Below, in pieces: positions 3,948 through 30,044 of a stretch of DNA of 32,000 nucleotides. Below the pieces are notes generated by a model. That model did not search any database. It worked only from the letters and a program-made list of their open reading frames with translations, and had not been told where the DNA came from. The position numbers and the translations under genes were made by a program. The stretch lies in NCBI GenBank assembly GCA_003516025.1, contig CP023991.1, forward strand, positions 240,001-272,000. The letters run 5' to 3'. Positions within the stretch are counted from its first letter, which is position 1. Every line of letters begins with the position of its first letter. Origin of the DNA: Candidatus Saccharimonadota bacterium. GTDB lineage: Bacteria > Patescibacteriota > Saccharimonadia > Saccharimonadales > UBA4665.

Positions 3948-4922
3948 ATGAAATATATACGCAGTTTACTGGTTGTTTTTGTCGGCCTGTTTATGGCTGG
4001 CACGCGTCGCGCCCGGCTTAACCAACGTTCGCAGGGCTTGGTCGATCCGGATGATGGTAGCGTCGATAGCCCGGCCGACCTGACCGGCAAGGGCTGGAAG
4101 GTCGCCCTTAAGCGCACCAAGCAGGCATTAAAGGACAAAAACCTCAGCATGTTTGCCGCGAGCCTGGCTTACTACACCACGCTGACTTTTTTCCCGGCAG
4201 CGCTTGGCCTGGCGACGCTGTACACTACTATTGCTGGCGGGCCGGCACTTTTGGACTTACTTGATAATCTGTCACTGGTACTGCCGCCTGCCATCCAGGA
4301 TTTACTACAGCAGCAGCTCAGTCCTTTAGCTAACGCCAGCCGCGGCTCTTTGGGTGTTGCTACGGCGGTAAGCCTGGTAGTAGTGTTATGGACGGTATCG
4401 GGCGGGGTACAGAACCTTATCAAGGCCACTAACATCGCTTACGAGGCTGAGGAAACACGTGGTTTCATTAAGCTTCGGCTGGTAAGCCTAGCACTGAGCG
4501 GCGTATTTGTACTGTTTGCCGCCCTCATGTTGCTGCTTTTAGTGCTTCAAGGGGATGCTCTGCACACACTCGGTGTACCGACGGTTTTGTCGAATCTATT
4601 CCCGATCTTCCGGTGGCCGCTGTTGGTTGTAGCCCTATCGCTGGTATTGTCTGTTATCTATCGCTATGCTCCAAACCGCACAGAACCGCGGTGGTCCTGG
4701 GTGAGCTGGGGCGCCGGCGCGGCCGTTATAATCTGGTTGATCGGAACGGTGCTGTTTTTCTTTTACGCCCAGCACTTTGGCAACTTCAATAAATCGTATG
4801 GAATTTTTGCCAGCATAATTATCCTGATGACCTGGTTCAACCTGTCGTCGTTAATTGTTCTGGTAGGTGCTCAAGTGAATAAAAAACTGGAAGACGTTTC
4901 AAGTACGAATACCACAGTTTAA
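3948..4922 (+). CDS. YihY/BrkB family membrane protein
   Basis: 324-aa ORF with the family-typical FAASLAYYTTLTFFPA segment and multiple TM helices through to the C-terminus. Confidence 0.75.
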   Translation: MKYIRSLLVVFVGLFMAGTRRARLNQRSQGLVDPDDGSVDSPADLTGKGWKVALKRTKQALKDKNLSMFAASLAYYTTLTFFPAALGLATLYTTIAGGPALLDLLDNLSLVLPPAIQDLLQQQLSPLANASRGSLGVATAVSLVVVLWTVSGGVQNLIKATNIAYEAEETRGFIKLRLVSLALSGVFVLFAALMLLLLVLQGDALHTLGVPTVLSNLFPIFRWPLLVVALSLVLSVIYRYAPNRTEPRWSWVSWGAGAAVIIWLIGTVLFFFYAQHFGNFNKSYGIFASIIILMTWFNLSSLIVLVGAQVNKKLEDVSSTNTTV

Positions 4923-4934
4923 GCAAAGCAGTAT

Positions 4935-4951
4935 ACAGGTCAAATCGTTAC
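4935..4951. repeat. Cassette 1 distal arm (ACAGGTCAAATCGTTAC), followed by a G7 tract at 4963-4969
   Basis: 15/17 complementary to 7252-7268. The surrounding ~45 nt are homologous (as reverse complement) to 25076-25113 of cassette 2. Confidence 0.75.
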
Positions 4952-5168
4952 AAATCATAAATGGGGGGGTAGGTAGGCAGCGGACGAGAAAGGGAGAATA
5001 AGGAGGAGTTAGGTAATTCAAAGATGAATTAAATCTCGCATACCTATGGTATCTCTATAAACCTATCTGGTCCGCTGCGCTGTACTAACTGTACGAATAC
5101 TTACGACTGCACCGGCAGACATTGATTACGTGTAAGTAATCGCCTGGGATGCTAGCTACTGCTACTAC

Positions 5169-5191
5169 TGTCAAGGACAATTGTCCTGACA
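5169..5191. repeat. 23-nt near-perfect palindrome TGTCAAGGACAATTGTCCTGACA
   Basis: The core AGGACAATTGTCCT is a perfect 14-nt palindrome and the flanks extend it with one mismatch. It is operator-like, with unknown function. Confidence 0.5.
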
Positions 5192-5195
5192 TGCG

Positions 5196-5308
5196 CTTCA
5201 TCGGGATACCCCGAGCATTTGAGCAAACCTTGTCCACCATGCCGCTTTGTAGGCGACTGGGTATGGTGGGAGCGGCGAGCTCTCTTGCATCGGGGTATCC
5301 CGATGAAG
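5196..5308. repeat. Perfect 19-bp inverted repeat (CTTCATCGGGATACCCCGA at 5196-5214 / TCGGGGTATCCCGATGAAG at 5290-5308) with a 75-nt loop
   Basis: Read directly from the sequence. The loop contains further complementary pairs (CCACCAT/ATGGTGG and GCCGCT/AGCGGC). Confidence 0.8.
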
Positions 5309-5626
5309 AGGCTCCGTCCGCTGGTATGCGGGGTGACGGGTGCGCATGGGTGCCTTGGTAGGGCATCCGTTTACCAACATTATCCGACACGCTCGCACGC
5401 GCTGGTTGTGCCTGTAAGTTTGTGGTACAAGCCTACGTCAGATCACCGGAGTGATAACGTTTCTTGTACAGATGCCAGGTTATGGAAGACCGGCGTCTAG
5501 GTTCAGGCACATACGCGCGCAGCTGCATCGGACGATGCTAGCGGTGCTTCAGTCTGTCGACCTCAGTCAAACGGCGAATTGTAGCTGCCGAGTGATTGCC
5601 GTGAAGGCGAGAGGTTGAACAGAACT

Positions 5627-6949
5627 TCAGCAGAGGGTGATGCCGTGGTCCGCCATGTACGCCTCGGGGTCGATGTGACCACCGAAGAACGACGTACCGA
5701 CGCCAAAGTGCAGGTGCGGGCCCGTCGACTGACCACGGTTGCCCGTGTAGGCGATGAGGTCACCGGCGTTGACGTAGGTGTCGAGACCCACGTTGACGCT
5801 GTCCACGTGGCCGTACTCGGTGTACATGCCGTCGTCACCCAGGATGACCACCGCGAGGCCGAAGCCGTTGGTAGCACCTGCGCGCTTGACGTATCCGCTG
5901 GTGGCGGCGTACACCGGGTTGCCGATGGGCAGAGCCATGTCCACGCCACCGTGCTGCGTTCCCCAGCGGGGACCGAAGCCAGACGTGCAGCGGTAGCTGC
6001 TGTCGTGGAGTGGGTTCACCCAGCCGTTGTTGACCACCGGAGCGGTGCTGGCAGCGACCTCGAGGGCCGGAGCAGCGGCGGGAGTCTCCGCGGGCGTGGG
6101 CTCGGGAGCCGGCGCGGGCGGTGCGACCTGCACGGAAGTTCCGGGCAGCTTGATCACGTCGCCGGCGTAGATGACGTCGGGGTCGGTGATCTTGTCGGGG
6201 TTGAGGTTGACGATGTCAGCCACCTTGTTGGTGTCCTGGTAGGCCGCCGAAGCGATCCTGTTCAGGGTGTCACCAGACAAGATGGAGTAGTCGGTCGACT
6301 CGACGTCGGCGACGACCGGTGCGGGAGCCGGGGTGGGCTCAGGCACGGTTGCCTCGACGACGGGCTCGGGAGCCGGGGTGGGCTCAGGAGCGACAGAAGC
6401 CGCGAGGGCGACATCAGACGGAGCCTCCACCGGGACGGTGGTGACGCCAGGCTGGATGCCACCGCGGCACTGCCAGGCCTTGAGGCCCTGACCCTTGACT
6501 CCATTCCAGCCGGACACGACGCGCTCGGCGACGATGACCTGCTGGACAGGCGTGGCCTTGTCGGCGCGGGGAGCGAACTCGCCGCCTCCGTACATGAGCC
6601 AGGTGCTGGTGAGGAACTGCAGGCCACCGAAGTGGAGACCGGCCGGGTCGGCGACGTGCCAACGGAAGTCGGACTCGCAGTCGACAACGCCGGTCCAGTC
6701 GTGCTCACCGACCGTCGTGGTCTCCTCTGCCATAGCAGTGGAGGGGTGTACGAACAGGGCGGCGATGCTGATCAGGCAGGCGAACAGCGTAGCGCGGATG
6801 GCGCTGGTGCGGTTCAGCTGCAGCTCGGGCAGGCGCGGACGGAAATCCACGACGGTCTGGCCGATCAGGACGGTGTTGTGCGCGAAGAAGTACATGACTT
6901 CTCGGCTGGGGTGCTCACTTGCGCGGTGTTGCGATGACATGATTGTCAT
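5627..6949 (-). CDS. Secreted peptidoglycan hydrolase: Rpf-like transglycosylase domain + LysM + M23 (LytM) peptidase; high-GC, actinobacterial type
   Basis: Rpf-type motif DWTGVVDCESDFRWHV...GGLQFLTSTW; Pro/Ala/Glu/Thr linkers; LysM YSILSGDTLNRIASAAY...IYAGDVIKLP; M23 motifs HGGVDMA and GPHLHFGV. The AAGGAG Shine-Dalgarno (complement of 6951-6956) is better spaced for the ATG at 6940, so the start is uncertain. Confidence 0.85.
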   Translation of the reverse strand: MTIMSSQHRASEHPSREVMYFFAHNTVLIGQTVVDFRPRLPELQLNRTSAIRATLFACLISIAALFVHPSTAMAEETTTVGEHDWTGVVDCESDFRWHVADPAGLHFGGLQFLTSTWLMYGGGEFAPRADKATPVQQVIVAERVVSGWNGVKGQGLKAWQCRGGIQPGVTTVPVEAPSDVALAASVAPEPTPAPEPVVEATVPEPTPAPAPVVADVESTDYSILSGDTLNRIASAAYQDTNKVADIVNLNPDKITDPDVIYAGDVIKLPGTSVQVAPPAPAPEPTPAETPAAAPALEVAASTAPVVNNGWVNPLHDSSYRCTSGFGPRWGTQHGGVDMALPIGNPVYAATSGYVKRAGATNGFGLAVVILGDDGMYTEYGHVDSVNVGLDTYVNAGDLIAYTGNRGQSTGPHLHFGVGTSFFGGHIDPEAYMADHGITLC

Positions 6950-7047
6950 GCTCCTTGCGGGTAGGGTACTGATGGGCGTGGATGGTAGAGCGGCTCAAGC
7001 GTAATCACCAATTGTGTCGGTGAAGAGCTGAGGATGTAGCGTAGCCA

Positions 7048-7115
7048 TTCCTGGTAAGGAGGGCATCAGAATAGACTTGCCGGAAATCTACTCAAACGCC
7101 CTCCCTATACAGGAA
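7048..7115 (-). promoter_or_regulatory. Cassette 1 conserved TAGGGAG hairpin upstream of the cargo gene
   Basis: On the minus strand, TTCCTGTATAGGGAGGGC pairs with GCCCTCCTTACCAGGAA. It is positionally and sequence-homologous to hairpin 22262-22327 of cassette 2. Confidence 0.5.
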
Positions 7116-7145
7116 GGGTAAGTATTCATAACCTGCGTCCGGAGG

Positions 7146-7178
7146 CCAAAAAGAGGCCTACAACAGAGTGCAGGCCTT
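7146..7178 (-). terminator. Weak intrinsic terminator ending the cassette 1 leader RNA
   Basis: Minus strand reads GAAGGCCTGCACTCTGTTGTAGGCCTCTTTTTGG: a 6-bp AGGCCT stem, a 12-nt loop and T5. Confidence 0.4.
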
Positions 7179-7251
7179 CAGGTATGCTAAAGGGCTGAAA
7201 AGAGTGATACGAGAAGGTCTGCACTCAGTACCGGTCACAGTATTATGAACA

Positions 7252-7268
7252 GTAATGAATTGACCTGT
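7252..7268. repeat. Cassette 1 proximal arm (minus-strand reading ACAGGTCAATTCATTAC)
   Basis: 15/17 complementary to 4935-4951, 2.3 kb away. Homologous to arm 22043-22059 of cassette 2. Confidence 0.75.
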
Positions 7269-7384
7269 TAATGATCGTTCTGCGTACAATAACCATTGAT
7301 ACACGAGTTCGATGCGGGGAGTAAGTAATATGCTTGCTGGACGCAAAGAGCAGGGAACCTGGCTCCATACACAAATACTATTGT

Positions 7385-7413
7385 ATAGTACTATATTATA
7401 GTTAAATTGTCAA
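7385..7413 (-). promoter_or_regulatory. Sigma70-type promoter of cassette 1 (TTGACA-N17-TACTAT)
   Basis: Minus strand reads CTATTGACAATTTAACTATAATATAGTACTAT, homologous to the cassette 2 promoter TTATTGACATTTTAGCTATTTTGTGGTAGTAT. Confidence 0.55.
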
Positions 7414-7480
7414 TAGTATGAGATATTTACGTGATCTATATCACTGATTAACATCACTTATTTGTCTAAATACAGGAATA

Positions 7481-7909
7481 TTAGGCGCTTTGCAGGGCGG
7501 TTGAATTAGTAATATTTGTTACAAGACCGGAAATAGCCATTTCGCCATTCGCATGTTTGCCGGTAATTTTGCCACGGTCTAAAAACACCTTGTAACTGCC
7601 ATCGGTAGCACGGATCCTGTACTGCACGTCATACATATCGGCCTTGCCGGTAATCAAATCGGTCATAGCCTGCATACAATGGTCGTAGTCATCAGAGTGA
7701 ACAAGATCCGTAAATGATTTATAGTGGACAAACTTACCAGCGTCTTTATCGCTATATCCCAGCATGCGAATTTTATTAAGCCCAAAAAATATTGTGCCAG
7801 AAGGCAACTCCATAAGCCACCAGGCCATATCAGCGGCTTCAATAGCATCTTCCAGGAGGCTGAATTCTTGGCCGGTTCCATAAAAACTCATATATATGTA
7901 CAGTAACAA
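7481..7909 (-). CDS. Stand-alone PAS domain protein
   Basis: 142-aa ORF with a PAS_3-like pattern: MAWWLMELPSG...LGYSDKD...VHSDDYD...YDVQYRIRATDGSYKVFLDRGKI. Confidence 0.65.
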   Translation of the reverse strand: MLLYIYMSFYGTGQEFSLLEDAIEAADMAWWLMELPSGTIFFGLNKIRMLGYSDKDAGKFVHYKSFTDLVHSDDYDHCMQAMTDLITGKADMYDVQYRIRATDGSYKVFLDRGKITGKHANGEMAISGLVTNITNSTALQSA

Positions 7910-12074: not shown

Positions 12075-12099
12075 TATAACAAAAGTGACCTCGTTATAA
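12075..12099. repeat. 25-nt repeat TATAACAAAAGTGACCTCGTTATAA (copy of 13713-13737 with 2 mismatches)
   Basis: Direct comparison of the two intergenic regions. On the minus strand it supplies a TGTTATAAT extended -10 directly before the ATG at 12066. Confidence 0.8.
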
Positions 12100-12135
12100 T
12101 GGGGCCTAGATACAGAAGTATATGTAATGACAGTA

Positions 12136-12146
12136 TTGGAGGGCCA
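12136..12146. repeat. TTGGAGGGCCA: copy of the tRNA-Lys 3' end (att-like)
   Basis: The identical 11-mer recurs at 12874-12884. A 10-mer match to 13777-13786 covers the CCA end plus acceptor stem of tRNA-Lys. Confidence 0.7.
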
Positions 12147-12171: not shown

Positions 12172-12813
12172 TTATTTCACCAATCTTACGTCGGCACCAT
12201 TCATCACCAGTACCTCACCATCGTGAAGTGCCCTATATGGCATATTGTTTTCTTCAAAGTATTGAACGACTTTTTCAATCCCTTCGCTTTCGGGATGCTC
12301 GGAACGATAGTGTGGTGCAATCGAGAACTCTACAAAGCCAAGTCCTTCCCAGATAGTTTCCGTATCATAGCCTTCGGGTATTTGTTCTGGATTATCAACA
12401 AGCTCTATACCTTTTAATGTTTGAGTTGCAACACAACTGCCAGCACTAAAACCGCCATAAACCAGCGTTTCATTGGTGACCAAATCTTTGATGGATCTAT
12501 CAAAGCCACTCATTTTCATGGCTTGGCGTAATGCAAAGGAATTGCCGCCCATTACCCAAACCAGCCCATAGCTTTCAAGTTTGGCTTTTAGTGAGTCGCT
12601 ATCATCAAAATAATCCCGCAAATCTAATTCTTCGGCAGTAAGCCCGATTGTTTTCATTTTTTCTGTTTCGTTTGCTAAATAGGTTGGGCGTTTTTCATTA
12701 CCGTAAATATCTGCTGCATTCATAATAATTCCAACTTTTTTATTGGAGCCAACCAGTTTTGCTAATTCTTCCGGATGATTGCCAAGAAAGTATGACGACA
12801 GATATAACTTCAT
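12172..12813 (-). CDS. Peptidase S51 (dipeptidase E-like) family protein
   Basis: 213-aa ORF with the GGNSFALRQAM and YGGFSAGS nucleophile-elbow pattern of S51 peptidases. Confidence 0.7.
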   Translation of the reverse strand: MKLYLSSYFLGNHPEELAKLVGSNKKVGIIMNAADIYGNEKRPTYLANETEKMKTIGLTAEELDLRDYFDDSDSLKAKLESYGLVWVMGGNSFALRQAMKMSGFDRSIKDLVTNETLVYGGFSAGSCVATQTLKGIELVDNPEQIPEGYDTETIWEGLGFVEFSIAPHYRSEHPESEGIEKVVQYFEENNMPYRALHDGEVLVMNGADVRLVK

Positions 12814-12911: not shown

Positions 12912-13703
12912 CTAACGGTACAGGCTCGATAAGACCTCACGTAATACTATAATCCTGTCTTCACCAGGTGGCCCTGAATAGCCAGCTTGTGAGCTGACAA
13001 CGAGTACCTGGTTCGGTGATATGCGGTACAAGCCTAGTCGCCAATGTGCTTTTTTTGAGCTACCCGGCAAGTCCTCTCCATCTGGCCCATAAAGGGCAAT
13101 GCGCTCGAGATCTAACTCGTTCGCGATCTTAAACCATTCTTTACCAAAGGCAAATACTTCTTTCAGTTGCATCTCACGAACAGCATCCCAGATATATTTA
13201 CGTATGAGGTCTGCAGGCGGCTGCATCTTACCGTTCACGCCAAATGAATGCCACGGATAAAGTTCGAAATTCAGAATATCATGGATAGAAGCGGTTGGAT
13301 CATTTAGCCATCGCCGAGTGAATCCGATAGCCTTGACCCAGTATTTACTTTTGCCGCCGTGAAACGCATCCCATGACTTGGGATCAGCAGCGGGACTTCG
13401 CTCTAAGCAATAGGTGTAGCCCTGTTTTGCGATTCTTTTCGCCCAAACTCCATTTTTCGATTGTAGATCATCGTAGCCAATACCAGGATTAAGACCAAGT
13501 ATTACAACCCGAGGCTCATGTTGAATGCCACGTATATCACCTACGATCGGATCTGGGTAGTGCCGTAGATCTACTTTACCCACCCCTTTGCCTTGATAGC
13601 TAGCTTGCCAGCGCACAAGGTCAGGATCTGTCATGGGTTTGCCTTCCACCCAGTCCGCTAGGGCCTGGTCCCAAAAGTCTGCAATTCTTGTGCGCGAATC
13701 CAT
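12912..13703 (-). CDS. Hypothetical protein with possible uracil-DNA-glycosylase-superfamily motifs
   Basis: 263-aa ORF. RVVILGLNPG resembles UDG/MUG motif A (GxNPG) and ELYPWHSFG resembles motif B (HPS-type). The functional assignment is weak. Confidence 0.35.
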   Translation of the reverse strand: MDSRTRIADFWDQALADWVEGKPMTDPDLVRWQASYQGKGVGKVDLRHYPDPIVGDIRGIQHEPRVVILGLNPGIGYDDLQSKNGVWAKRIAKQGYTYCLERSPAADPKSWDAFHGGKSKYWVKAIGFTRRWLNDPTASIHDILNFELYPWHSFGVNGKMQPPADLIRKYIWDAVREMQLKEVFAFGKEWFKIANELDLERIALYGPDGEDLPGSSKKAHWRLGLYRISPNQVLVVSSQAGYSGPPGEDRIIVLREVLSSLYR

Positions 13704-13715
13704 AGGGCTTACTAT

Positions 13716-13746
13716 AACAAAAGCGACTTCGTTATAACGAAGTCGC
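13716..13746 (-). terminator. Intrinsic terminator downstream of tRNA-Lys
   Basis: Perfect 9-bp palindrome GCGACTTCG-TTATAA-CGAAGTCGC (13723-13746), followed on the minus strand by TTTTGTT. Confidence 0.6.
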
Positions 13747-13776
13747 TAGATAAGAAAATAGATTTTATAACGGAAC

Positions 13777-13853
13777 TGGAGGGCCAGGAGGGACTCGAAC
13801 CCTCGACACCCTGCTTAAGAGGCAGGTGCTCTAACCGGCTGAGCTACTGGCCC
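13777..13853 (-). tRNA. tRNA-Lys (anticodon CUU)
   Basis: Minus strand reads GGGCCAGTAGCTCAGCCGGTTAGAGCACCTGCCTCTTAAGCAGGGTGTCGAGGGTTCGAGTCCCTCCTGGCCCTCCA. It has a cloverleaf, the anticodon loop CTCTTAA, a GTTCGAG T-loop and an encoded CCA. Confidence 0.9.
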
Positions 13854-21932: not shown

Positions 21933-22042
21933 GTGTACATCCTGATGAGTGGGTAGACAGAGGACGTCAATTATGATGAAAAACTGTTGCTGTCTAAGTG
22001 CTTCGGTACGTTAGGTGGGCCATTTCGACAGGGGTAATTTAA

Positions 22043-22059
22043 CAAGTCGAATCATTACA
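22043..22059. repeat. Cassette 2 proximal arm CAAGTCGAATCATTACA
   Basis: 17/17 complementary to 25097-25113, 3.0 kb downstream. Similarity continues imperfectly for about 10 more nt. Confidence 0.85.
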
Positions 22060-22133
22060 GTGCATTGATACGTACATGTATCAAATAACTGCAAGGGACG
22101 ACAGACGAAACCAGGGCAGGCTTTTATATGCAA

Positions 22134-22160: not shown

Positions 22161-22261
22161 GCGTGTAAGAGCCTGCACTGGTTGAGTGTAAGTTTGAGTT
22201 TCGGCTCCTTACTTCCCGTGCAGATAATCTACGCACTACAACCATACTTTGCTTTTACTGT

Positions 22262-22327
22262 CCCATTGTAGGGAGTGGCTTGCTTGAGAAAACATTGTTG
22301 TCTCCAGCCAGTCACTCCCTACAGGGG
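22262..22327 (+). promoter_or_regulatory. Cassette 2 conserved TAGGGAG hairpin upstream of the cargo genes
   Basis: TGTAGGGAGTG (22267-22277) pairs with CACTCCCTACA (22313-22323), flanked by CCC/GGG. Homologous to 7048-7115. Confidence 0.5.
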
Positions 22328-22397: not shown

Positions 22398-22970
22398 GTG
22401 CCAACCCCCGAAGCATCTCTGGCTAAGGCTGAGCGACTCGAACGAGAGGCCGCGCAAGCCCGCCAGCGTGCCGCCGACTTGGCTGCTGCCCAAGAGCTCC
22501 GTCACAAGAAGGAGCAGGCGGAAGAGCAGTTCAGGGACGACGAGCACCGTTTCAACGACAAGGTCAACCGTCTCGTCAAGATCAGCTTCCCCCGCGAGGG
22601 CAAGAGGCCTGACCTGGCGAACTACGACAAGGACCGCGTCGGCCAGATCGAGCAAGTCATCGACGAGATCCTGGCACTATGGGAACCCCCGCAGCCTGCC
22701 CCGGCAGCGCAGCCCGATCCCGTGCCAACCCCCGCGCCTGACCCCGCAGCGGTCCTGCAGCCCGATCCCGATCCGGCCGCAGTTCCGCAGCCCGACCCCC
22801 AGGTCGTTCCCGACCCGGACCCCAACGGTCAGCCGACCGCCGCCATCCCGCAGGCCCAGCCCGCTGCTCCGCAGTCCGGTTCTGGTGCCGTACGAAGGCC
22901 CCCGGCCGCTGGCCACGGATTCCGCCGTCTACTCGACAAGGCAGGAAGCGCCTTCACCGGCCAATCCTGA
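22398..22970 (+). CDS. High-GC hypothetical protein: charged coiled-coil N-terminus plus Pro/Asp/Ala/Gln-rich repeats
   Basis: Frame of track ORF 22383-22970. I prefer the GTG at 22398, which has GGAGGG 7 nt upstream. Codons are GC3-rich. No domain recognised. Confidence 0.55.
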   Translation: MPTPEASLAKAERLEREAAQARQRAADLAAAQELRHKKEQAEEQFRDDEHRFNDKVNRLVKISFPREGKRPDLANYDKDRVGQIEQVIDEILALWEPPQPAPAAQPDPVPTPAPDPAAVLQPDPDPAAVPQPDPQVVPDPDPNGQPTAAIPQAQPAAPQSGSGAVRRPPAAGHGFRRLLDKAGSAFTGQS

Positions 22971-23006
22971 TCCTTTCCTCCCCATACTGGAAAGAAGGTC
23001 CTCGCG

Positions 23007-24851
23007 ATGTCTTACTGGCTCGCTTTCGTCATCATCGTGGCCATCACGGCTGCGGTGTGGATGTACGCCAACGCTCGTTCCTACCGACGGACCCACCGGT
23101 TCGTCATGACGCGTAACCGCCTCGGACTCGCCTTGTGCGGCTTCCTGGTGGTCTACCTGCTGACCCAGCTCCTCTGGAGTCCGCTGAGCGGCTTCCGAGT
23201 CGTCAACAACCGCGGCAACCACTGGTTCACCAACCCGTGGAGCCCGTTCTGGCCTTCGGAGTCCTTCATGGGACGTGTGGTCTTCGTGGTGATCGTCGTG
23301 ATCCTGGTCTTCGCGACCGCGGTCATCGCCTTCGCCCTCCGAAGCAACGCCCGTTCCCGCGGCATCGCGCTCTGCGTGATCGTCCTGGTCGTGCTGGTCC
23401 TGGCCCTGATCTTCTCCCCCGCCTTCAAGCGGTGGATGTGGATCGCTCTGGCCATCGGCCTGCTCGCCTGGCTGCTGCCGGTTGGCATCCACTCCAAGTG
23501 GACCGCCAAGTTGCAGGCCGTCGTGGTGCTGCTGGTGGGGCTGTTCCTCCTCGTTCCTGCCATCTGGGCCATCGACTACATGGACGTCACTGCGGTGAGT
23601 CACATGTCAGCGGCCGCTGATGACAACGGGGATGCGGAGAAGCCGTCGTTCACGTGCGCCGACAAGGGTGACCTGTCCCTCGACTGTGAGGTGTCAGACA
23701 CCGGACTCGGCAACGACGTCACCACCCACTGGGAGGTGACCGACAAGGAGGGCAACGAGGTCATCGCGCAGGCCGACCTGGACAAGCTGGAGCACACGCT
23801 CAAGCCCAACCTGAAGGTCGGCACGGCCGGTGACTTCACGGTGACCTTCTGGGCGACCAAGGGTGACGAGCAGACCGACAAGGTCTCGCACGACTACCCC
23901 GTCGCTCAGCCGGCAGCTGCCTGTGCCAACGGCTTCATCGTGAAGCAGCCTGGCCGTGAGGACTACAACCTCAACGACCAGGGTGCGGCGATCCGTGGTG
24001 CAGGCAGTGAGGAGGCGTTCCGTCAGCAGATCATCACCCAAGCGGCCGAAGACCCGCTGACGCTGTACGTCTACTACATCAACTCGCCGGCACAGAAGAC
24101 CGACCCGCTGCCCCTCAAGACGGAGCAGGACACCAACCCGGCCACCATCCTCGTCGAGGGCGGTGACATCAAGGACGGTGCCTGCTACTCCCAGAGGGCC
24201 GTCGACGCCTACAACATGTGGCTCCCGCTGTGGAAGGTCGCCGACCTCACCCACCAGGAGAGTGTCACCCACCAGGGTGCCAACTACGGCATCGAGAATG
24301 GTCAGCTCGTCCAGGATGATGGTGTCAACGTCCCCAACGAAGAGGGTGTCGACATCGCCTACCGTGACGCCAACGGCAACATCGTCGGTGAGCACTCGGC
24401 GCTCTACGTCTGCACCCAGCCGACCACCGGCGAAGCCACTCCCGGCGTCCCGCAGGGTCACACCAACAACCAGGAGGTTGAACAGCACGACGTTCCTACC
24501 GGAGACACCCCTGAGGAGGACACGCCCGACCAGGACACCCCCGACCAGGACACCCCCGAGGAGGACACGCCCGACACCGGCAAGCACGCCAGCCAGGCCC
24601 CGGTCAGTTCCGCCCCCGTCGCAACCGACCCTCGGGTCAACCCCAACGCGGGCGGCAACGGAACGCGGCCTTCGTCGTCTTCTTCGGCTCGTCCGACGCA
24701 GGCGCCGCAGCCCCAGCCCACCATGAGCGAGACACCTTCCGAGGTGCAGCAGCCCGTGCCGGCTGGTCCCGTAGCAACTTCCACGGCTGTCGCCACGGGA
24801 GATCCTGCTGCGGGTGGCGGTGACAGTGATGGGGACGGTATCCCGGACTGA
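23007..24851 (+). CDS. High-GC hypothetical membrane protein (about 6 N-terminal TM helices plus a large extracytoplasmic domain and acidic/Pro-rich tail)
   Basis: 614-aa ORF with GC3-rich codons and GGAAAGAAGG upstream. The TM block spans residues ~1-190, followed by a Cys-containing soluble region, DTPxx repeats and a Pro/Ser/Ala-rich C-terminus. No domain recognised. Confidence 0.7.
   Translation: MSYWLAFVIIVAITAAVWMYANARSYRRTHRFVMTRNRLGLALCGFLVVYLLTQLLWSPLSGFRVVNNRGNHWFTNPWSPFWPSESFMGRVVFVVIVVILVFATAVIAFALRSNARSRGIALCVIVLVVLVLALIFSPAFKRWMWIALAIGLLAWLLPVGIHSKWTAKLQAVVVLLVGLFLLVPAIWAIDYMDVTAVSHMSAAADDNGDAEKPSFTCADKGDLSLDCEVSDTGLGNDVTTHWEVTDKEGNEVIAQADLDKLEHTLKPNLKVGTAGDFTVTFWATKGDEQTDKVSHDYPVAQPAAACANGFIVKQPGREDYNLNDQGAAIRGAGSEEAFRQQIITQAAEDPLTLYVYYINSPAQKTDPLPLKTEQDTNPATILVEGGDIKDGACYSQRAVDAYNMWLPLWKVADLTHQESVTHQGANYGIENGQLVQDDGVNVPNEEGVDIAYRDANGNIVGEHSALYVCTQPTTGEATPGVPQGHTNNQEVEQHDVPTGDTPEEDTPDQDTPDQDTPEEDTPDTGKHASQAPVSSAPVATDPRVNPNAGGNGTRPSSSSSARPTQAPQPQPTMSETPSEVQQPVPAGPVATSTAVATGDPAAGGGDSDGDGIPD
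24504..24578 (+). repeat. Five tandem 15-nt repeats encoding DTP(E/D)(E/Q/T)
   Basis: GACACCCCTGAGGAG GACACGCCCGACCAG GACACCCCCGACCAG GACACCCCCGAGGAG GACACGCCCGACACC. Confidence 0.9.
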
Positions 24852-24943: not shown

Positions 24944-25096
24944 TTCCACAAATGTAATTGCAAAAAAGTATGACGTGTAGATGCGTTTTGTAGGGTGGTT
25001 GTAAGACTAAAAGTTGAAGTGTTGTTGGCCTTCGCCGACTCCATTCCTTTTATGAAATAACAACCGCCCTGCAATTACCCCCCCATTAATGTGTAT

Positions 25097-25113
25097 TGTA
25101 ATGATTCGACTTG
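25097..25113. repeat. Cassette 2 distal arm TGTAATGATTCGACTTG, preceded by a C7 tract at 25078-25084
   Basis: Perfect complement of 22043-22059. The stretch 25076-25113 is homologous to the reverse complement of 4935-4972. Confidence 0.85.
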
Positions 25114-27214: not shown

Positions 27215-27289
27215 CGGTCTCATCGTCTAACGGTTAGGACACCAGGTTTTCATCCTGGCAATCGGAGTTCGATTCTCCGTGAGATCACC
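27215..27289 (+). tRNA. tRNA-Glu (anticodon UUC)
   Basis: GGTCTCATCGTCTAACGGTTAGGACACCAGGTTTTCATCCTGGCAATCGGAGTTCGATTCTCCGTGAGATCACCA. It has a 7-bp acceptor stem, the anticodon loop TTTTCAT, a GTTCGAT T-loop and an encoded CCA. Confidence 0.9.
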
Positions 27290-28800
27290 AAAAGAGACTC
27301 ATCAGCTACAGATGGGTCTTTTTTCATGTTCACCAAAGAGTAAAGGGCGCTTAATTTTGGCGTTCCAAAATTATTTGTGTAGAAGTTGTACTCTATACCT
27401 TCTGGGAATATCATGCGTTGGTAGACTTCGCGCATATCGGGTGTAGCATCGGCCCATATCCGTGGCGCGTTATCCATGTAGCTCAATACGTAGTCAATGG
27501 CCTCTTGATCGGTGCCAATTTGCTGGGATAGTTTTGCAATGCTATCGGTAAGCCCTTCAATCTCCTTATTTGCTTTCAGATGTATGGATATCTTTTCCTG
27601 TTTGCTGATATCGTCGCTGACGAGCTTGTCAGTTGCTTTTTGCTTATGCTCTTCCAGGTCGTTGATCCTGTTCTGGAACTTCTTACGCTGTATGTGTAGC
27701 GTCTTGAGCTCGTCATGCCATACGCGCACGATCATAACCTTAACAAGCCGAAGGGATAGCTTATTTGGTGTTATCTGAGTAAGTAGGCCTATGAACTGTT
27801 CATTGAGCTTAAATGCAGCAATTGAAGCCTTAGAACACTTAGTGCAGTGGTACTTAGGATAGCTTTTACCACTGCCGCCAGTTGAGGCGCTCCCGCGAAC
27901 GGGGCTGCCACAAGTTGCGCAGCTTAGAAATCGGCGCAAAGGGAAATCGGGGTGGTTAACGGAGTAGCTTTCTACCTTACCGTGCTTACGCCGCTCAAGG
28001 ATGCGCTGGTTTCTCCAAAATAAGTCTTGGCTTATTATGCCCTCAAACTGGCTAGTCGGAACGTATTGGTCATTTGTATGCTGATTTCTTTCCAGACCAG
28101 CATATAAAGGGTTGCGCAGCATCTTGCCGAGTAAGCTATGGTTTAGTGATTTACCATTCGGTCGAAATAAGTCTGTTTCGTTTGCTACGGTCAGTAATTC
28201 CTTTATCGTAACGGTGTCGGTTGCGAATTCGGTCAGAAGATATGCTATCTTTTCACCAATGACAGGGTCCGCAGCCAGAATGGATTTTCCGAGTAAGTCG
28301 CGGACATTGATCAGTCCAAAGGGTGCTTTCGCCATGCGATACCCTTCATTGGCATGCCGCTTCATGTTGTCGGTAACTCGCTCCGATTTAATATCGTTGT
28401 CGACCTCGGCCATGACAGCCTTCATATAACGAAGGAGTTTATCTGATTTATTACTTACAATGTTTGAGCTAGGATCCTTGATTTCTATTTTATATTTTTT
28501 TAGCTCTGTACTGATAGCGATAAAGTCATCCATGTTTCTGGCCAAGCGGTCTACCTCGTATATGATCAAATAATGGATGTCTTTACCATGTTCTCTCAGA
28601 TAAGACAGCATATCTTGGAGCTGAGGACGATTAGCTGTCTTGGCGGATACACCTTCTTCACGAAAGGTGCGCTTAATAAGGACGCCATTTCTAAGCGCCC
28701 ATTCCTGACAACGTTCTTCTTGGTTATCAAGGCTGACGCCGTCTACCTGCTGGGTTGTTGAGACGCGTACGTATACAACAGCACGCTTTTTTATATCCAT
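27250..28800 (-). CDS. Large serine recombinase (integrase)
   Basis: 516-aa ORF with the resolvase catalytic domain AVVYVRVSTTQQ...SLDNQ...EVDRLARN, a recombinase domain, a Cys-rich zinc ribbon (CATCGSP...YHCTKC) and a coiled-coil C-terminal region. The last 40 nt overlap tRNA-Glu on the opposite strand. Confidence 0.9.
   Translation of the reverse strand: MDIKKRAVVYVRVSTTQQVDGVSLDNQEERCQEWALRNGVLIKRTFREEGVSAKTANRPQLQDMLSYLREHGKDIHYLIIYEVDRLARNMDDFIAISTELKKYKIEIKDPSSNIVSNKSDKLLRYMKAVMAEVDNDIKSERVTDNMKRHANEGYRMAKAPFGLINVRDLLGKSILAADPVIGEKIAYLLTEFATDTVTIKELLTVANETDLFRPNGKSLNHSLLGKMLRNPLYAGLERNQHTNDQYVPTSQFEGIISQDLFWRNQRILERRKHGKVESYSVNHPDFPLRRFLSCATCGSPVRGSASTGGSGKSYPKYHCTKCSKASIAAFKLNEQFIGLLTQITPNKLSLRLVKVMIVRVWHDELKTLHIQRKKFQNRINDLEEHKQKATDKLVSDDISKQEKISIHLKANKEIEGLTDSIAKLSQQIGTDQEAIDYVLSYMDNAPRIWADATPDMREVYQRMIFPEGIEYNFYTNNFGTPKLSALYSLVNMKKDPSVADESLLVISRRIELRLPG
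27294..27324 (+). terminator. Intrinsic terminator after tRNA-Glu
   Basis: AGACTCATC-agctaca-GATGGGTCT followed by TTTTTT. Confidence 0.65.
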
Positions 28801-28804
28801 TGCG

Positions 28805-29068
28805 TTATTCTACCACCGCAGATTTATGAACGGAATACTTACGGAAAATAAAACGTATGATCTGTTCCTGCTGAAGAAGGAGCTCGGTCAGTTCACCGTC
28901 GGTTAACTGGGTGGCGGACAAATCTAATAATTTACGTGCCTCTCCGACAGAGATAATTGGCTTAATATTTTGATTTTGAAGAGGTTTGGGAGCGAGTGGC
29001 CTAACCAAAGCGTCATAATGACCCTTCCTGCTTGTGCCTCTACCATGTCTGTGACAGGAGGCTTTCAC
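28805..29068 (-). CDS. Hypothetical small protein upstream of the integrase (possibly co-transcribed)
   Basis: 87-aa ORF ending 4 nt before the integrase start. No motif recognised. Confidence 0.4.
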   Translation of the reverse strand: MKASCHRHGRGTSRKGHYDALVRPLAPKPLQNQNIKPIISVGEARKLLDLSATQLTDGELTELLLQQEQIIRFIFRKYSVHKSAVVE

Positions 29069-29159
29069 CTGATCTCAGGCAAGCTTCGTGATATAACGTT
29101 TTGGCCGTGCTAGGCAATGTACTGACATTGTAACACCAACGGATGTTAATATAAGAGCT

Positions 29160-30044
29160 ATGGAACGATTTGAGTTAGAAGTAGGTCACGGTTACACCAA
29201 GGAAGCGCTTGAATCTATTTTCGCCACTAACTTTGGCGCACGTATAAAAGGCATCACTTTACGCCGACATGTTGATAATACGCCGTATGCGATTGTTTTT
29301 TCGCGGGCTGACGGTCCATATACTGACCGCGTAGAGGGTAATTCATTTTTTTACGACGGCGAAGGCACCAATAAGGACCAAAATCTTACGGCCGCCAATA
29401 ATGCGCTTGTTAAAGCAAATGAAACTGGCCGAGTTATATATGGCTTTAGGCAGGACGAAGCGGGCGGCCTTTGGCGATATCTAGGGATACTGAACGTCCT
29501 GGAGTGCTCCTATGTTCGTAAAAATGGCTTTATGACGTATGAATTTCATTTTACAGCGGATCCTGTTAGCCCGTCAGAGTACAAAAATGCTGAGGCTGCA
29601 ATTGACTCAGCCATTCAAAACACACCCGTACTTACAGAGGAAACCCATAAGGTAGCTACTAAGTCAACCGCGCGTAGTGCCGCCTTCAGTAAGAATGTTA
29701 AGAAGGCTTATGACAACACTTGCGCATTTTGCGGAAAGAAGCGGACTTCGGTAGCAGGGTATCCTGAAGTAGAGGCGGCACATATATACCCCAAAGAAAA
29801 AGACGGCGCTGACGATTACCGCAACGGAATCGCGCTATGCAGACTACATCATTGGGCTTTTGACGCTGGACTGATGGCACTTGATGACCAACTGAATATT
29901 GTTGTCAAGCAAGAGTTACGGGCAGATACGAATTATGACGATATATATAAATATGCTGATGCGCCATTGTTCCGTCCCCAAAATAACGCATTGAAACCCC
30001 ACTTGCTGTATGTAGCTGCTCACCGAGAACTGCATGGTTTCTAG
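29160..30044 (+). CDS. SRA(YDG)-like domain + HNH nuclease; candidate modification-dependent (type IV) restriction enzyme
   Basis: The N-terminal FFYDGEGTNKDQNLTAANNAL matches the SRA/YDG signature Y-x-G-x-G...DQ-x-L...N-x-AL. The C-terminal CAFCGKK...EAAHIYPK...NGIALCRLHHWAFDAG is an HNH motif. Confidence 0.65.
   Translation: MERFELEVGHGYTKEALESIFATNFGARIKGITLRRHVDNTPYAIVFSRADGPYTDRVEGNSFFYDGEGTNKDQNLTAANNALVKANETGRVIYGFRQDEAGGLWRYLGILNVLECSYVRKNGFMTYEFHFTADPVSPSEYKNAEAAIDSAIQNTPVLTEETHKVATKSTARSAAFSKNVKKAYDNTCAFCGKKRTSVAGYPEVEAAHIYPKEKDGADDYRNGIALCRLHHWAFDAGLMALDDQLNIVVKQELRADTNYDDIYKYADAPLFRPQNNALKPHLLYVAAHRELHGF

Follow-up and report, generated by a model that had tools for sequence, protein, structure and literature searches.

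Putative end-to-end RNA double clamp around a wall-hydrolase gene and other envelope-protein genes of Saccharibacteria

RNase III stems flank the 16S and 23S rRNAs in bacterial operons, and T7 has intercistronic RNase III sites. In bacterial mRNA, as distinct from rRNA precursors, the pairing of untranslated regions (UTRs) over kilobases is known in a few isolated instances. One is the icaR mRNA of Staphylococcus aureus, whose translation is controlled by base pairing of its 5' and 3' UTRs, which also generates a site for RNase III (PMC3868564). Exploring a 32,000-nt stretch of Saccharibacteria DNA (the window, to which all coordinates refer), we found that a gene encoding an Rpf-LysM-M23 wall hydrolase, read on the minus strand from 7413 to 4935 (cassette 1), lies between two nested pairs of complementary sequences, which are predicted to form an outer and an inner helix across the open reading frame (ORF). 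The elements are conserved, covary, are strand-biased and keep a constant orientation to the promoter and the cargo gene. Because of the compensatory changes, the G-U pairs and the nesting of the covarying helices, we favour intramolecular pairing of the RNA strand, and consider it probable (about 0.6) that cassette 1 is an mRNA with a lineage-conserved, end-to-end double clamp around its ORF. The cassette would be one transcription unit of a ~1 Mb Saccharibacteria (TM7) genome, comprising a promoter, a structured 5' UTR of ~430 nt, the gene of the secreted hydrolase and a structured 3' UTR of ~690 nt, and its UTRs would be a diverged copy of an RNA architecture that the lineage places around several envelope-protein operons. 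The outer helix (17-30 bp) and the inner helix (10-18 bp) would join 5' UTR to 3' UTR, with the ORF looped out and the mRNA ends held in a long duplex; of the RNA between the two helices, the 5' part would form a conserved three-way-junction domain and the 3' part a domain rich in pyrimidines.

Like the rRNA and T7 stems, the clamp would be a kilobase-range 5'-3' duplex of at least 20 bp with an asymmetric internal loop and a lineage-conserved sequence, and the predicted duplexes provide the intramolecular double-stranded RNA of about two turns (at least 20 bp) that is typical of RNase III-type substrates. Unlike these stems, it encloses protein ORFs and consists of two nested helices with UTR domains, and its cleavage is suggested by analogy. 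As in icaR, the 3' UTR of a bacterial mRNA would pair with its own 5' UTR, in the clamp on comparative and thermodynamic evidence, and the 3' UTR carries a C-rich motif resembling an anti-Shine-Dalgarno (anti-SD) sequence, UCCCCUG in icaR and CUCCUCCUU plus C7 in the clamp. Whereas the icaR interaction is that of a short 3' motif with the SD region, in one gene of one genus (PMC3868564), the clamp has a helix of 17-30 bp far 5' of the SD, a second helix, several loci and many species. Masking of the SD does not fit cassette 1, both clamp helices being 160-310 nt upstream of the SD at 6956-6951; pairing of CUCCUCCUU (5008-5000) with AAGGAG is conceivable but without comparative support. An earlier note on this DNA, made from the sequence, knew of no described element with such a layout, and our Rfam and literature searches likewise gave no match to the sequence or the design. 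The clamp would work like rRNA processing stems and icaR but belongs to no described family. New here are a clamp of 25-30 nt, a nested helix and UTR domains conserved across many species of the candidate phyla radiation, with clamps at several loci per genome, all of them at genes of secreted or surface proteins (peptidoglycan hydrolases, lipoproteins and small membrane proteins).

All the parts that the earlier note had listed for cassette 1 were found on the minus strand, at the positions it had given. Together with the features added here they are:

7413-7385, minus: sigma-70-type promoter, TTGACA (7413-7408), N17, TACTAT (7390-7385), scoring 10/12 in the promoter scan
7272-7378, minus: domain 1 of the 5' UTR, from a three-sequence alignment and consensus fold
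7268-7252, minus: 5' arm ACAGGTCAATTCATTAC, part of the 5' strand of the outer clamp
7243-7271, minus: 5' strand of the outer clamp, made up of the arm, a UUA prefix and an inner extension to 7243
7132-7240, minus: closed 5' UTR domain, from alignment, folds and covariation
7240-7231 with 7142-7132, minus: helix closing this domain, CUGUGACCGG with CCGGACGCAGG
7226-7212 with 7180-7166, minus: D:E helix, GAGUGCAGACCUUCU with UGAAGGCCUGCACUC
7159-7143, minus: small hairpin AGGCC-UCUUUUU-GGCCU, containing the T5
7118-7130, minus: 5' strand of the inner clamp, AUGAAUACUUAC, complementary to 5104-5093
7048-7115, minus: TAGGGAG hairpin, UAGGGAGGGC ... GCCCUCCUUA, strong in the minimum-energy fold
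5627-6949, minus: cargo ORF, Rpf-LysM-M23 by Pfam
5105-5626, minus: proximal 3' UTR inside both clamps, ~520 nt, very strongly structured
5093-5104, minus: 3' strand of the inner clamp, GUAAGUAUUCGU
4961-5092, minus: distal 3' UTR domain between the clamps, with hairpins, aligned with locus L004
4951-4935, minus: 3' arm GTAACGATTTGACCTGT, part of the 3' strand of the outer clamp
4935-4960, minus: 3' strand of the outer clamp, made up of the arm and an inner extension

The pairing of the two arms at 15 of 17 positions, reported earlier, is present, but by itself it is at about chance level, ~0.2 such pairs being expected in 2.5 kb; many chance inverted repeats of 20-31 nt occur in the window. 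The significance of the arms thus comes from their conservation and covariation at other loci and not from the match in cassette 1 alone. The pairing also extends beyond the arms noted earlier, the outer helix covering 7268-7243 and 4935-4960, over which a mini-construct fold gave 21 pairs with small loops. Across 41 cassettes, which are not phylogenetically independent, 97.4% of the alignment cells in the 16-bp outer core are paired, four pairs are changed on both sides and a G-U pair occupies one position in 25 of the 41; neither shuffles nor slid registers come near this score. The helix continues inward (AGUGCAUGUC/GACAUGCACU) past a bulge of 3-4 nt that is confined to the 3' strand, and outward as well. 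Predicted energies of the outer duplexes range from about -25 to -53 kcal/mol (mean -37), and the stems of loci with a short leader (class I) have ~16 + 10 bp with outer extensions. Sense duplexes exceeded their antisense counterparts in stability in 27 of 40 cassettes (mean -37.4 vs -34.2 kcal/mol; Wilcoxon p = 2e-4, uncorrected for phylogeny). Cassette 1 and a second cassette of the same genome (cassette 2, below) differ at two arm positions, and at each the partner arm carries the matching change; since these same-genome changes are compensatory, a single sequence-specific DNA-binding protein is disfavoured. In a mini-construct that joined the 5' UTR to the distal 3' UTR both clamps formed, with pair probabilities of 0.88-1.0. 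RNAduplex applied genome-wide to 200-nt flanks did not discriminate, long gapped duplexes scoring equally in shuffles.

Inside the outer clamp a second long-range helix is present and covaries. Its versions, which at loci other than cassette 1 and L004 also include UGUGACUAUGCA, are:

Cassette 1, 7127-7118 with 5104-5095, minus: GAAUACUUAC with GUAAGUAUUC
L004: UGAUUACUAC with GUAGUAAUCA, at the homologous position and changed on both sides
L009 and L031: UGUGACUAC with GUAGUCA(C/U), also given as UGUGACUAC/GUAGUCACA
L011 and L062: UGUGACUAUGC(A) with (U)GCAUAGUCACA
L065: GUGACAACAC with GGUGAUGUCAC, with one internal mismatch
L033, the class I equivalent: GAAGCUAUAGAUUUU with AAAAUCUAUAGCUUC
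Cassette 2, ~22226-22250 with 24965-24989, plus: partly read by eye

The D:E helix of the leader is the conserved and thermodynamically dominant fold: 9 of its 14 pairs show compensatory changes across 15 cassettes, 90.5% of the cells are paired, and none of 500 shuffles reached the score.

The earlier note had proposed a conserved low-GC scaffold and a search of related genomes for further copies. The flanks are indeed common to the window's second high-GC block, and further genomes have the scaffold too, around different cargo; empty scaffolds, with arms and no cargo, were not found among the loci examined. In 185,579 species genomes (one per species) the pattern AACARGTCNNWTCATTACNGTNCAT matched 62 loci, with ~1 chance match expected. 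Nearly all are from Saccharibacteria, with a few bins labelled otherwise; the chance match is probably L042, on a low-GC contig labelled Flavobacteriaceae, where the match is without the conserved TT prefix. Wherever the locus extends far enough, the complementary arm (consensus GTAATGATCTGAYTTG) follows at a distance of 0.5-3 kb downstream, and UUAACAA after the 3' arm recurs across loci. The promoter is always 5' of the 5' arm, and the cargo is forward in 50 of 50 informative cassettes (those in which homology evidence backs the orientation of the cargo) and reversed in none. A syntenic orthologue of cassette 1 is L004, on a JGI metagenome contig, which has the order CHAP, ABC transporter, cassette, yihY, rhomboid, conserved leader and trailer blocks, and the hydrolase domains in the order LysM-Rpf-M23. 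A metagenome scan for arms of the cassette 1 type added one locus, L067, the third such leader, which is without a 3' end. Most cassettes enclose a lipoprotein gene, the tail of the protein being rich in Pro and Thr, together with the gene of a small membrane protein; these fall into three families, of 25, 5 and 3 members, the second of which includes cassette 2. Other cargo comprises the Rpf-M23 hydrolase (cassette 1, L004, L067), small proteins and, in L006 and L054, proteins that appear lysozyme-type by eye, no domain search having been made.

The second high-GC block, cassette 2, occupies 22.3-24.9 kb and has its parts in the same order on the plus strand. The two cassettes share the arms, the GAGUGCAG/CUGCACUC helix, a TAGGGAG-type hairpin and a C-rich tract before the 3' arm. 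The arms of cassette 2 are:

22039-22065, plus: 5' arm TTAACAAGTCGAATCATTACAGTGCAT, downstream of the promoter
25092-25113, plus: 3' arm, 22 nt, 91% complementary

The 5' arm is followed by a stem related to GAGUGCAG/CUGCACUC, a T-run hairpin, the TAGGGAG hairpin at 22267-22323 and two high-GC ORFs, and CCGCCCTGC..TACCCCCCCATTAATG lies between the ORFs and the 3' arm. A homologue search with the 614-aa protein of cassette 2 returned only the protein itself, low-complexity words having swamped the candidates. Cassettes of this type stand in a fixed neighbourhood of histidine kinase, cassette and DUF11 surface protein; a DUF11/LPXTG protein adjoins in 35 loci and a histidine kinase in 31. Separately, the DUF11/LPXTG gene 3' of the common cassette has a long-range pair of its own (L033, 5781-5794 with 7418-7431; also L035, L038 and L047), whose sequence differs from that of the clamp (GGCAACAATGTTTT / AAAACATTGTTGCC); no equivalent pair was found at the DUF11 gene of the window. 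End-to-end pairing may be used more widely in these genomes. Clamp units also occur in arrays: L012 (7420-5250, minus) carries three tandem clamp-enclosed ORFs of 88, 191 and ~85 aa, the first two with near-identical promoters and leaders, the third promoterless and starting 14 nt past the preceding 3' arm, and L026 and L032 have similar arm-to-arm junctions. We liken this array to the consecutive processing stems of an rRNA operon, in which each of several units of one transcript lies in its own stem.

That the clamp duplex acts in RNA is inferred from sequence comparison, and two roles may be envisaged. The duplex might be a processing site of the RNase III type, by analogy with the stems of rRNA precursors or the intercistronic sites of T7, or it might shield both ends of the mRNA from exonucleases; in each case it would determine how much mRNA is available for secreted and host-contact proteins. 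Formation of the clamp may be conditional, a block of the leader that mimics the 3' arm (block D) and an alternative hairpin followed by a U-run being potential local competitors. If the clamp does act in RNA, it would represent a new, phylum-scale form of post-transcriptional control or mRNA maturation, would define a candidate host-contact regulon in these episymbionts, and would offer a sequence tag with which to find such genes in metagenomes.

Several observations weigh against the double-clamp reading. The outer helix of cassette 1 is the weakest of the set, 15/17 with A-C and U-U mismatches, and here the antisense duplex is slightly more stable than the sense duplex (-27.2 vs -24.8 kcal/mol). 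The covariation counts draw on related cassettes, as said above. In ~35 species that differ widely in GC, 25 nt of the arm do not vary at all, which exceeds what a duplex needs and implies a sequence-specific partner. Inverted repeats that pair would fit single-stranded DNA too. RNase III (rnc) was not found in ~560 kb of Saccharibacteria DNA, which is expected for so small a sample. Finally, the very high GC at third codon positions (GC3) of the cargo is not explained by the clamp.

The hydrolase gene could be regulated by the leader alone, acting as a riboswitch or as an attenuator with an intrinsic terminator, the 3' arm being secondary or incidental; we regard this as unlikely, and it can coexist with the clamp. 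A hairpin at 7177-7154 followed by CTTTTT (to 7148) scored terminator-like in a scan, folding as AGGCCU...AGGCCU and then CUUUUU, and a hairpin with a U-run lies 5' of the arm in many leaders of the second class (class II). The 5' strand of this terminator, GAAGGCC, takes its GGCC from block E, a strand of the covarying D:E helix, giving a classical terminator/antiterminator choice, and block D (GGUAAUGAGUGCAGACCU; GGUAMUGAGUGCAGACCU), the mimic of the 3' arm, could pair with the 5' arm in the manner of an anti-antiterminator. Against this, the D:E helix is conserved and is the dominant fold, and most class II relatives have CUUUUU in a hairpin loop with pairing partners on both sides. In the earlier note the leader RNA was terminated: the hairpin and CTTTTT are there, but constitutive termination finds no support, the conserved pairing going on past the U-run, where CCGGACGCAGG still pairs with CUGUGACCGG. 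Since in L004 and L067 a GC-rich hairpin runs straight into U5-6, a conditional attenuator in the leader is possible. In Actinobacteria the ydaO/c-di-AMP riboswitch precedes rpf and other genes of cell-wall hydrolases, and like it the clamp puts a long structured leader before an Rpf-type hydrolase gene. Unlike ydaO, this leader is common to unrelated cargo, and the window holds no RF00379 match. Searches of the window and 21 related loci with the Rfam 15 covariance models, down to E < 5 / E < 1, returned tRNAs only (two tRNA genes in the window), so neither c-di-AMP (ydaO) nor any other riboswitch is indicated at the gathering threshold or at E < 5. Three further candidates were dropped, a T-box (GGUGG before the terminator of class II leaders) with no RF00230 match, a hammerhead core (CUGAUGAG...GAAA) in the cassette 2 leader that is unconserved and has no Rfam match, and a coincidental T7-like promoter, TATAGGGAG, which is one strand of a conserved hairpin. 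A leader acting by itself also fails to account for the conserved 3' arm and the inner helix, which covary at a distance of 2 kb. The arms could be DNA recombination sites, bounding an invertible segment for phase variation, whose inversion would turn the gene away from a promoter outside it, or forming att-like palindrome halves for excision and integration of the cassette, which we consider improbable. Inverted repeats flank genes of surface and secreted proteins, the typical targets of phase variation, and their sequence is conserved between loci, as expected for one recombinase; scaffolds differ in cargo, TTAACAA precedes the 5' arm and also follows the 3' arm, in the tandem arrays (L012, L026, L032) the 3' arm and the next 5' arm are near-palindromic, and 2.1 kb separate cassette 2 from the gene of a large serine recombinase (27250-28800). 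However, that recombinase accompanies the cassette in only 2 of 66 loci (tblastn) and abuts a tRNA as prophage and island integrases do, which led us to reject a linkage. The forward cargo of all 50 informative cassettes, the synteny of the common cassette between species, the conserved G-U position and one-sided bulge of 3-4 nt in the arms, and the compensatory differences between the two cassettes of one genome all speak against recombination sites, and two more nested helices and a covarying domain would make no sense for a recombinase site.

The described systems of this kind agree with the cassettes in part. Integron cassettes resemble them as promoter-proximal ORF arrays with imperfect palindromes and varied cargo in a conserved frame, whereas the clamp has no IntI and no attI, the halves of its palindrome are on opposite sides of the ORF and not joined 3' of it as in attC, most units have their own promoter, the flank motif is (G)TTAACAA with no GTTRRRY core, and the loci are syntenic. 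Invertons (Hin/Gin, the Bacteroides Mpi regulon) likewise share an inverted repeat among several surface-protein loci; in contrast, no inverted state was seen in 50 assemblies, no invertase is linked, the repeats enclose whole operons and not promoters, and the covariation is of the RNA type. Least probable of all is a non-autonomous transposon (MITE-like, or a mobile insertion cassette) with terminal inverted repeats and a horizontally acquired passenger gene. The repeats do bound a segment of foreign composition (GC 0.67 vs 0.49) with cargo of actinobacterial type, and bound other cargo elsewhere, but target-site duplications are absent (flanking sequences ...ATCATTA|ACAGG and CCTGT|ATACTGC), the conserved promoter and leader fall beyond the left repeat, copies in the same genome share short blocks and not near-identity, the elements are syntenic between species with only one to four copies per genome, and the ancient, syntenic cassette 2 family is also high in GC3. 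As noted earlier, no transposase, integrase or reverse transcriptase is encoded inside the scaffold; no transposase is associated with it, and viral contigs, phage genomes and plasmids gave no match except to the Rpf coding segment. The mobile cassette implied by the earlier note finds no support, the commonest version occupying a stable syntenic locus with no recombinase travelling with the scaffold. A group I or II intron or a retron was rejected as well, as the unit has its own promoter, ends before the next gene and has no match to reverse transcriptase or intron models. For annotation, the caution is that high GC and flanking inverted repeats do not by themselves make a gene of a low-GC genome part of a mobile element.

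The cargo gene of cassette 1 is the high-GC wall-hydrolase gene described before, with a GC of 0.67 against 0.44-0.52 in the flanking genes, and Pfam matches to Transglycosylase-like (Rpf; E = 1e-17), LysM (7e-6) and Peptidase_M23 (1e-23). The protein has an N-terminal hydrophobic segment. Its true start is probably ATG 6940, because this matches the 437-aa database protein P0001, whose gene is on a 1,005,782-bp contig, and sits 10 nt after AAGGAG (6956-6951). Homologues are mainly from Actinobacteria (Rhodococcus, Streptomyces, Geodermatophilus), and the Rpf segment (window 6047-6169; query 781-903) has 72% nucleotide identity over ~110 nt to tape-measure genes of 14 Gordonia terrae phages, which hints at an actinobacterial or actinophage source of the Rpf domain. 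Gordonia species are hosts of some environmental Saccharibacteria. GC3 is 0.84 in cassette 1 and 0.84-0.85 in the clamp-enclosed ORFs (5627-6949, 22399-24851) vs 0.42-0.62 in their neighbours; over 43 cassettes it rises with genome GC, and more steeply (r = 0.81), and in species of low GC it is the same as the genome value. Most likely a duplicated scaffold took up a hydrolase gene of actinobacterial type. An origin by transfer from Actinobacteria agrees with cassette 1, with its Rpf domain and homologues, but not obviously with the ancient, syntenic cassette 2 family. Very improbably, the double clamp could be a modular RNA "socket" for expressing, and perhaps exporting, genes that match the actinobacterial hosts: foreign or host-like genes, whose GC3 reaches 0.85 (those of the Rpf-M23 hydrolase, of lysozyme-like enzymes and of lipoproteins), would have been recruited into duplicated scaffolds, the clamp would yield nuclease-resistant, end-protected mRNAs, and, in the boldest version, these mRNAs would be delivered to and translated in the high-GC host, which would explain the host-like codon usage. 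In the same genome, L002 (1-11200) has a ~10 kb block of GC 0.56-0.67 without clamp arms, with seven genes lacking a Pfam match and an M23 peptidase (P0028) that is 41% identical to the M23 domain of the cargo; high-GC islands of this genome are therefore not confined to clamps.

Turning to the remaining parts of cassette 1, the promoter is 68 nt downstream of the stop of the PAS gene at 7481, TTGACA with a 16-17 nt spacer is kept at the equivalent place in L004 and L067, and the transcript probably starts near 7378. Domain 1 has a 5'-terminal helix (~7375-7365 with 7289-7279, one pair with a compensatory change) that encloses variable hairpins, and its conserved blocks are GUAUUUGUGUAYGGAGC and CUCCCCGCAUCGAACUC. 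The TAGGGAG hairpin has counterparts in cassette 2 and in other class II loci. The proximal 3' UTR contains a perfect 19-nt inverted pair (5196-5214 / 5290-5308) and the blocks CGGACGGAGC..UUCAUCGGGAU(A)CCCCGAUGCAAGAGAGC, which are kept in L004 with indels that rule out coding. The distal 3' UTR has the invariant, pyrimidine-rich, anti-SD-like ACCUAACUCCUCCUU at 5014-5000 and the C7 tract at 4969-4963; other class II loci are also C-rich before the 3' arm. Folding gave z = -6.2 for the 5' UTR and z = -12.5 for the whole 3' UTR. The 3' arm ends 12 nt from the yihY stop at 4922, in agreement with the scaffold end given earlier, and the junction of arm and yihY is identical in an independently assembled Logan contig (L001). 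Given this junction and the layout shared by L004 and L067, a misassembly or chimera was rejected. By Pfam the neighbouring genes encode PAS, CHAP, YihY, rhomboid, histidine kinase and DUF11 proteins, and the serine recombinase is the only recombinase of the window.

On the strand opposite the cassette in L004 (~10195-10010), the sequence opposite the conserved ACCTAACTCCTCCTT is a strong SD, AAGGAGGAG, followed by a GTG-initiated hydrophobic ORF of ~60 aa that resembles a type I toxin. An antisense small ORF behind the plus-strand AAGGAGG at 5000-5014 was rejected for the window, where the frame (5000-5030, plus) closes after 2-3 codons and leaves the conservation unexplained. Class I loci (e.g. 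L034, 5523-5468, minus; L017, 4519-4574) have a covarying hairpin at the 5' end of the transcript with a conserved apical GGUGUGAGRACC, followed by GGAGG immediately before the arm, and a conserved AAGCTTGTGCTTT box 5' of the -35 element. The serine recombinase (27250-28800, minus; Resolvase and Recombinase domains) ends in or against the tRNA at 27216-27287 (plus) and is followed by an SRA-HNH endonuclease gene at 29160-30044; 27216-30044 is probably the edge of an integrated element, and a 67%-identical recombinase is carried by L027. Elsewhere in the window a ~70-nt segment is duplicated 1.64 kb apart (12075-12146 / 13713-13786; 92% identity over 25 nt, 73% over 41 nt), its second copy overlapping the 3' end of the tRNA at 13780-13853; the repeats look like att-type sites bounding a small island with the ORFs 12172-12813 and 12912-13703.

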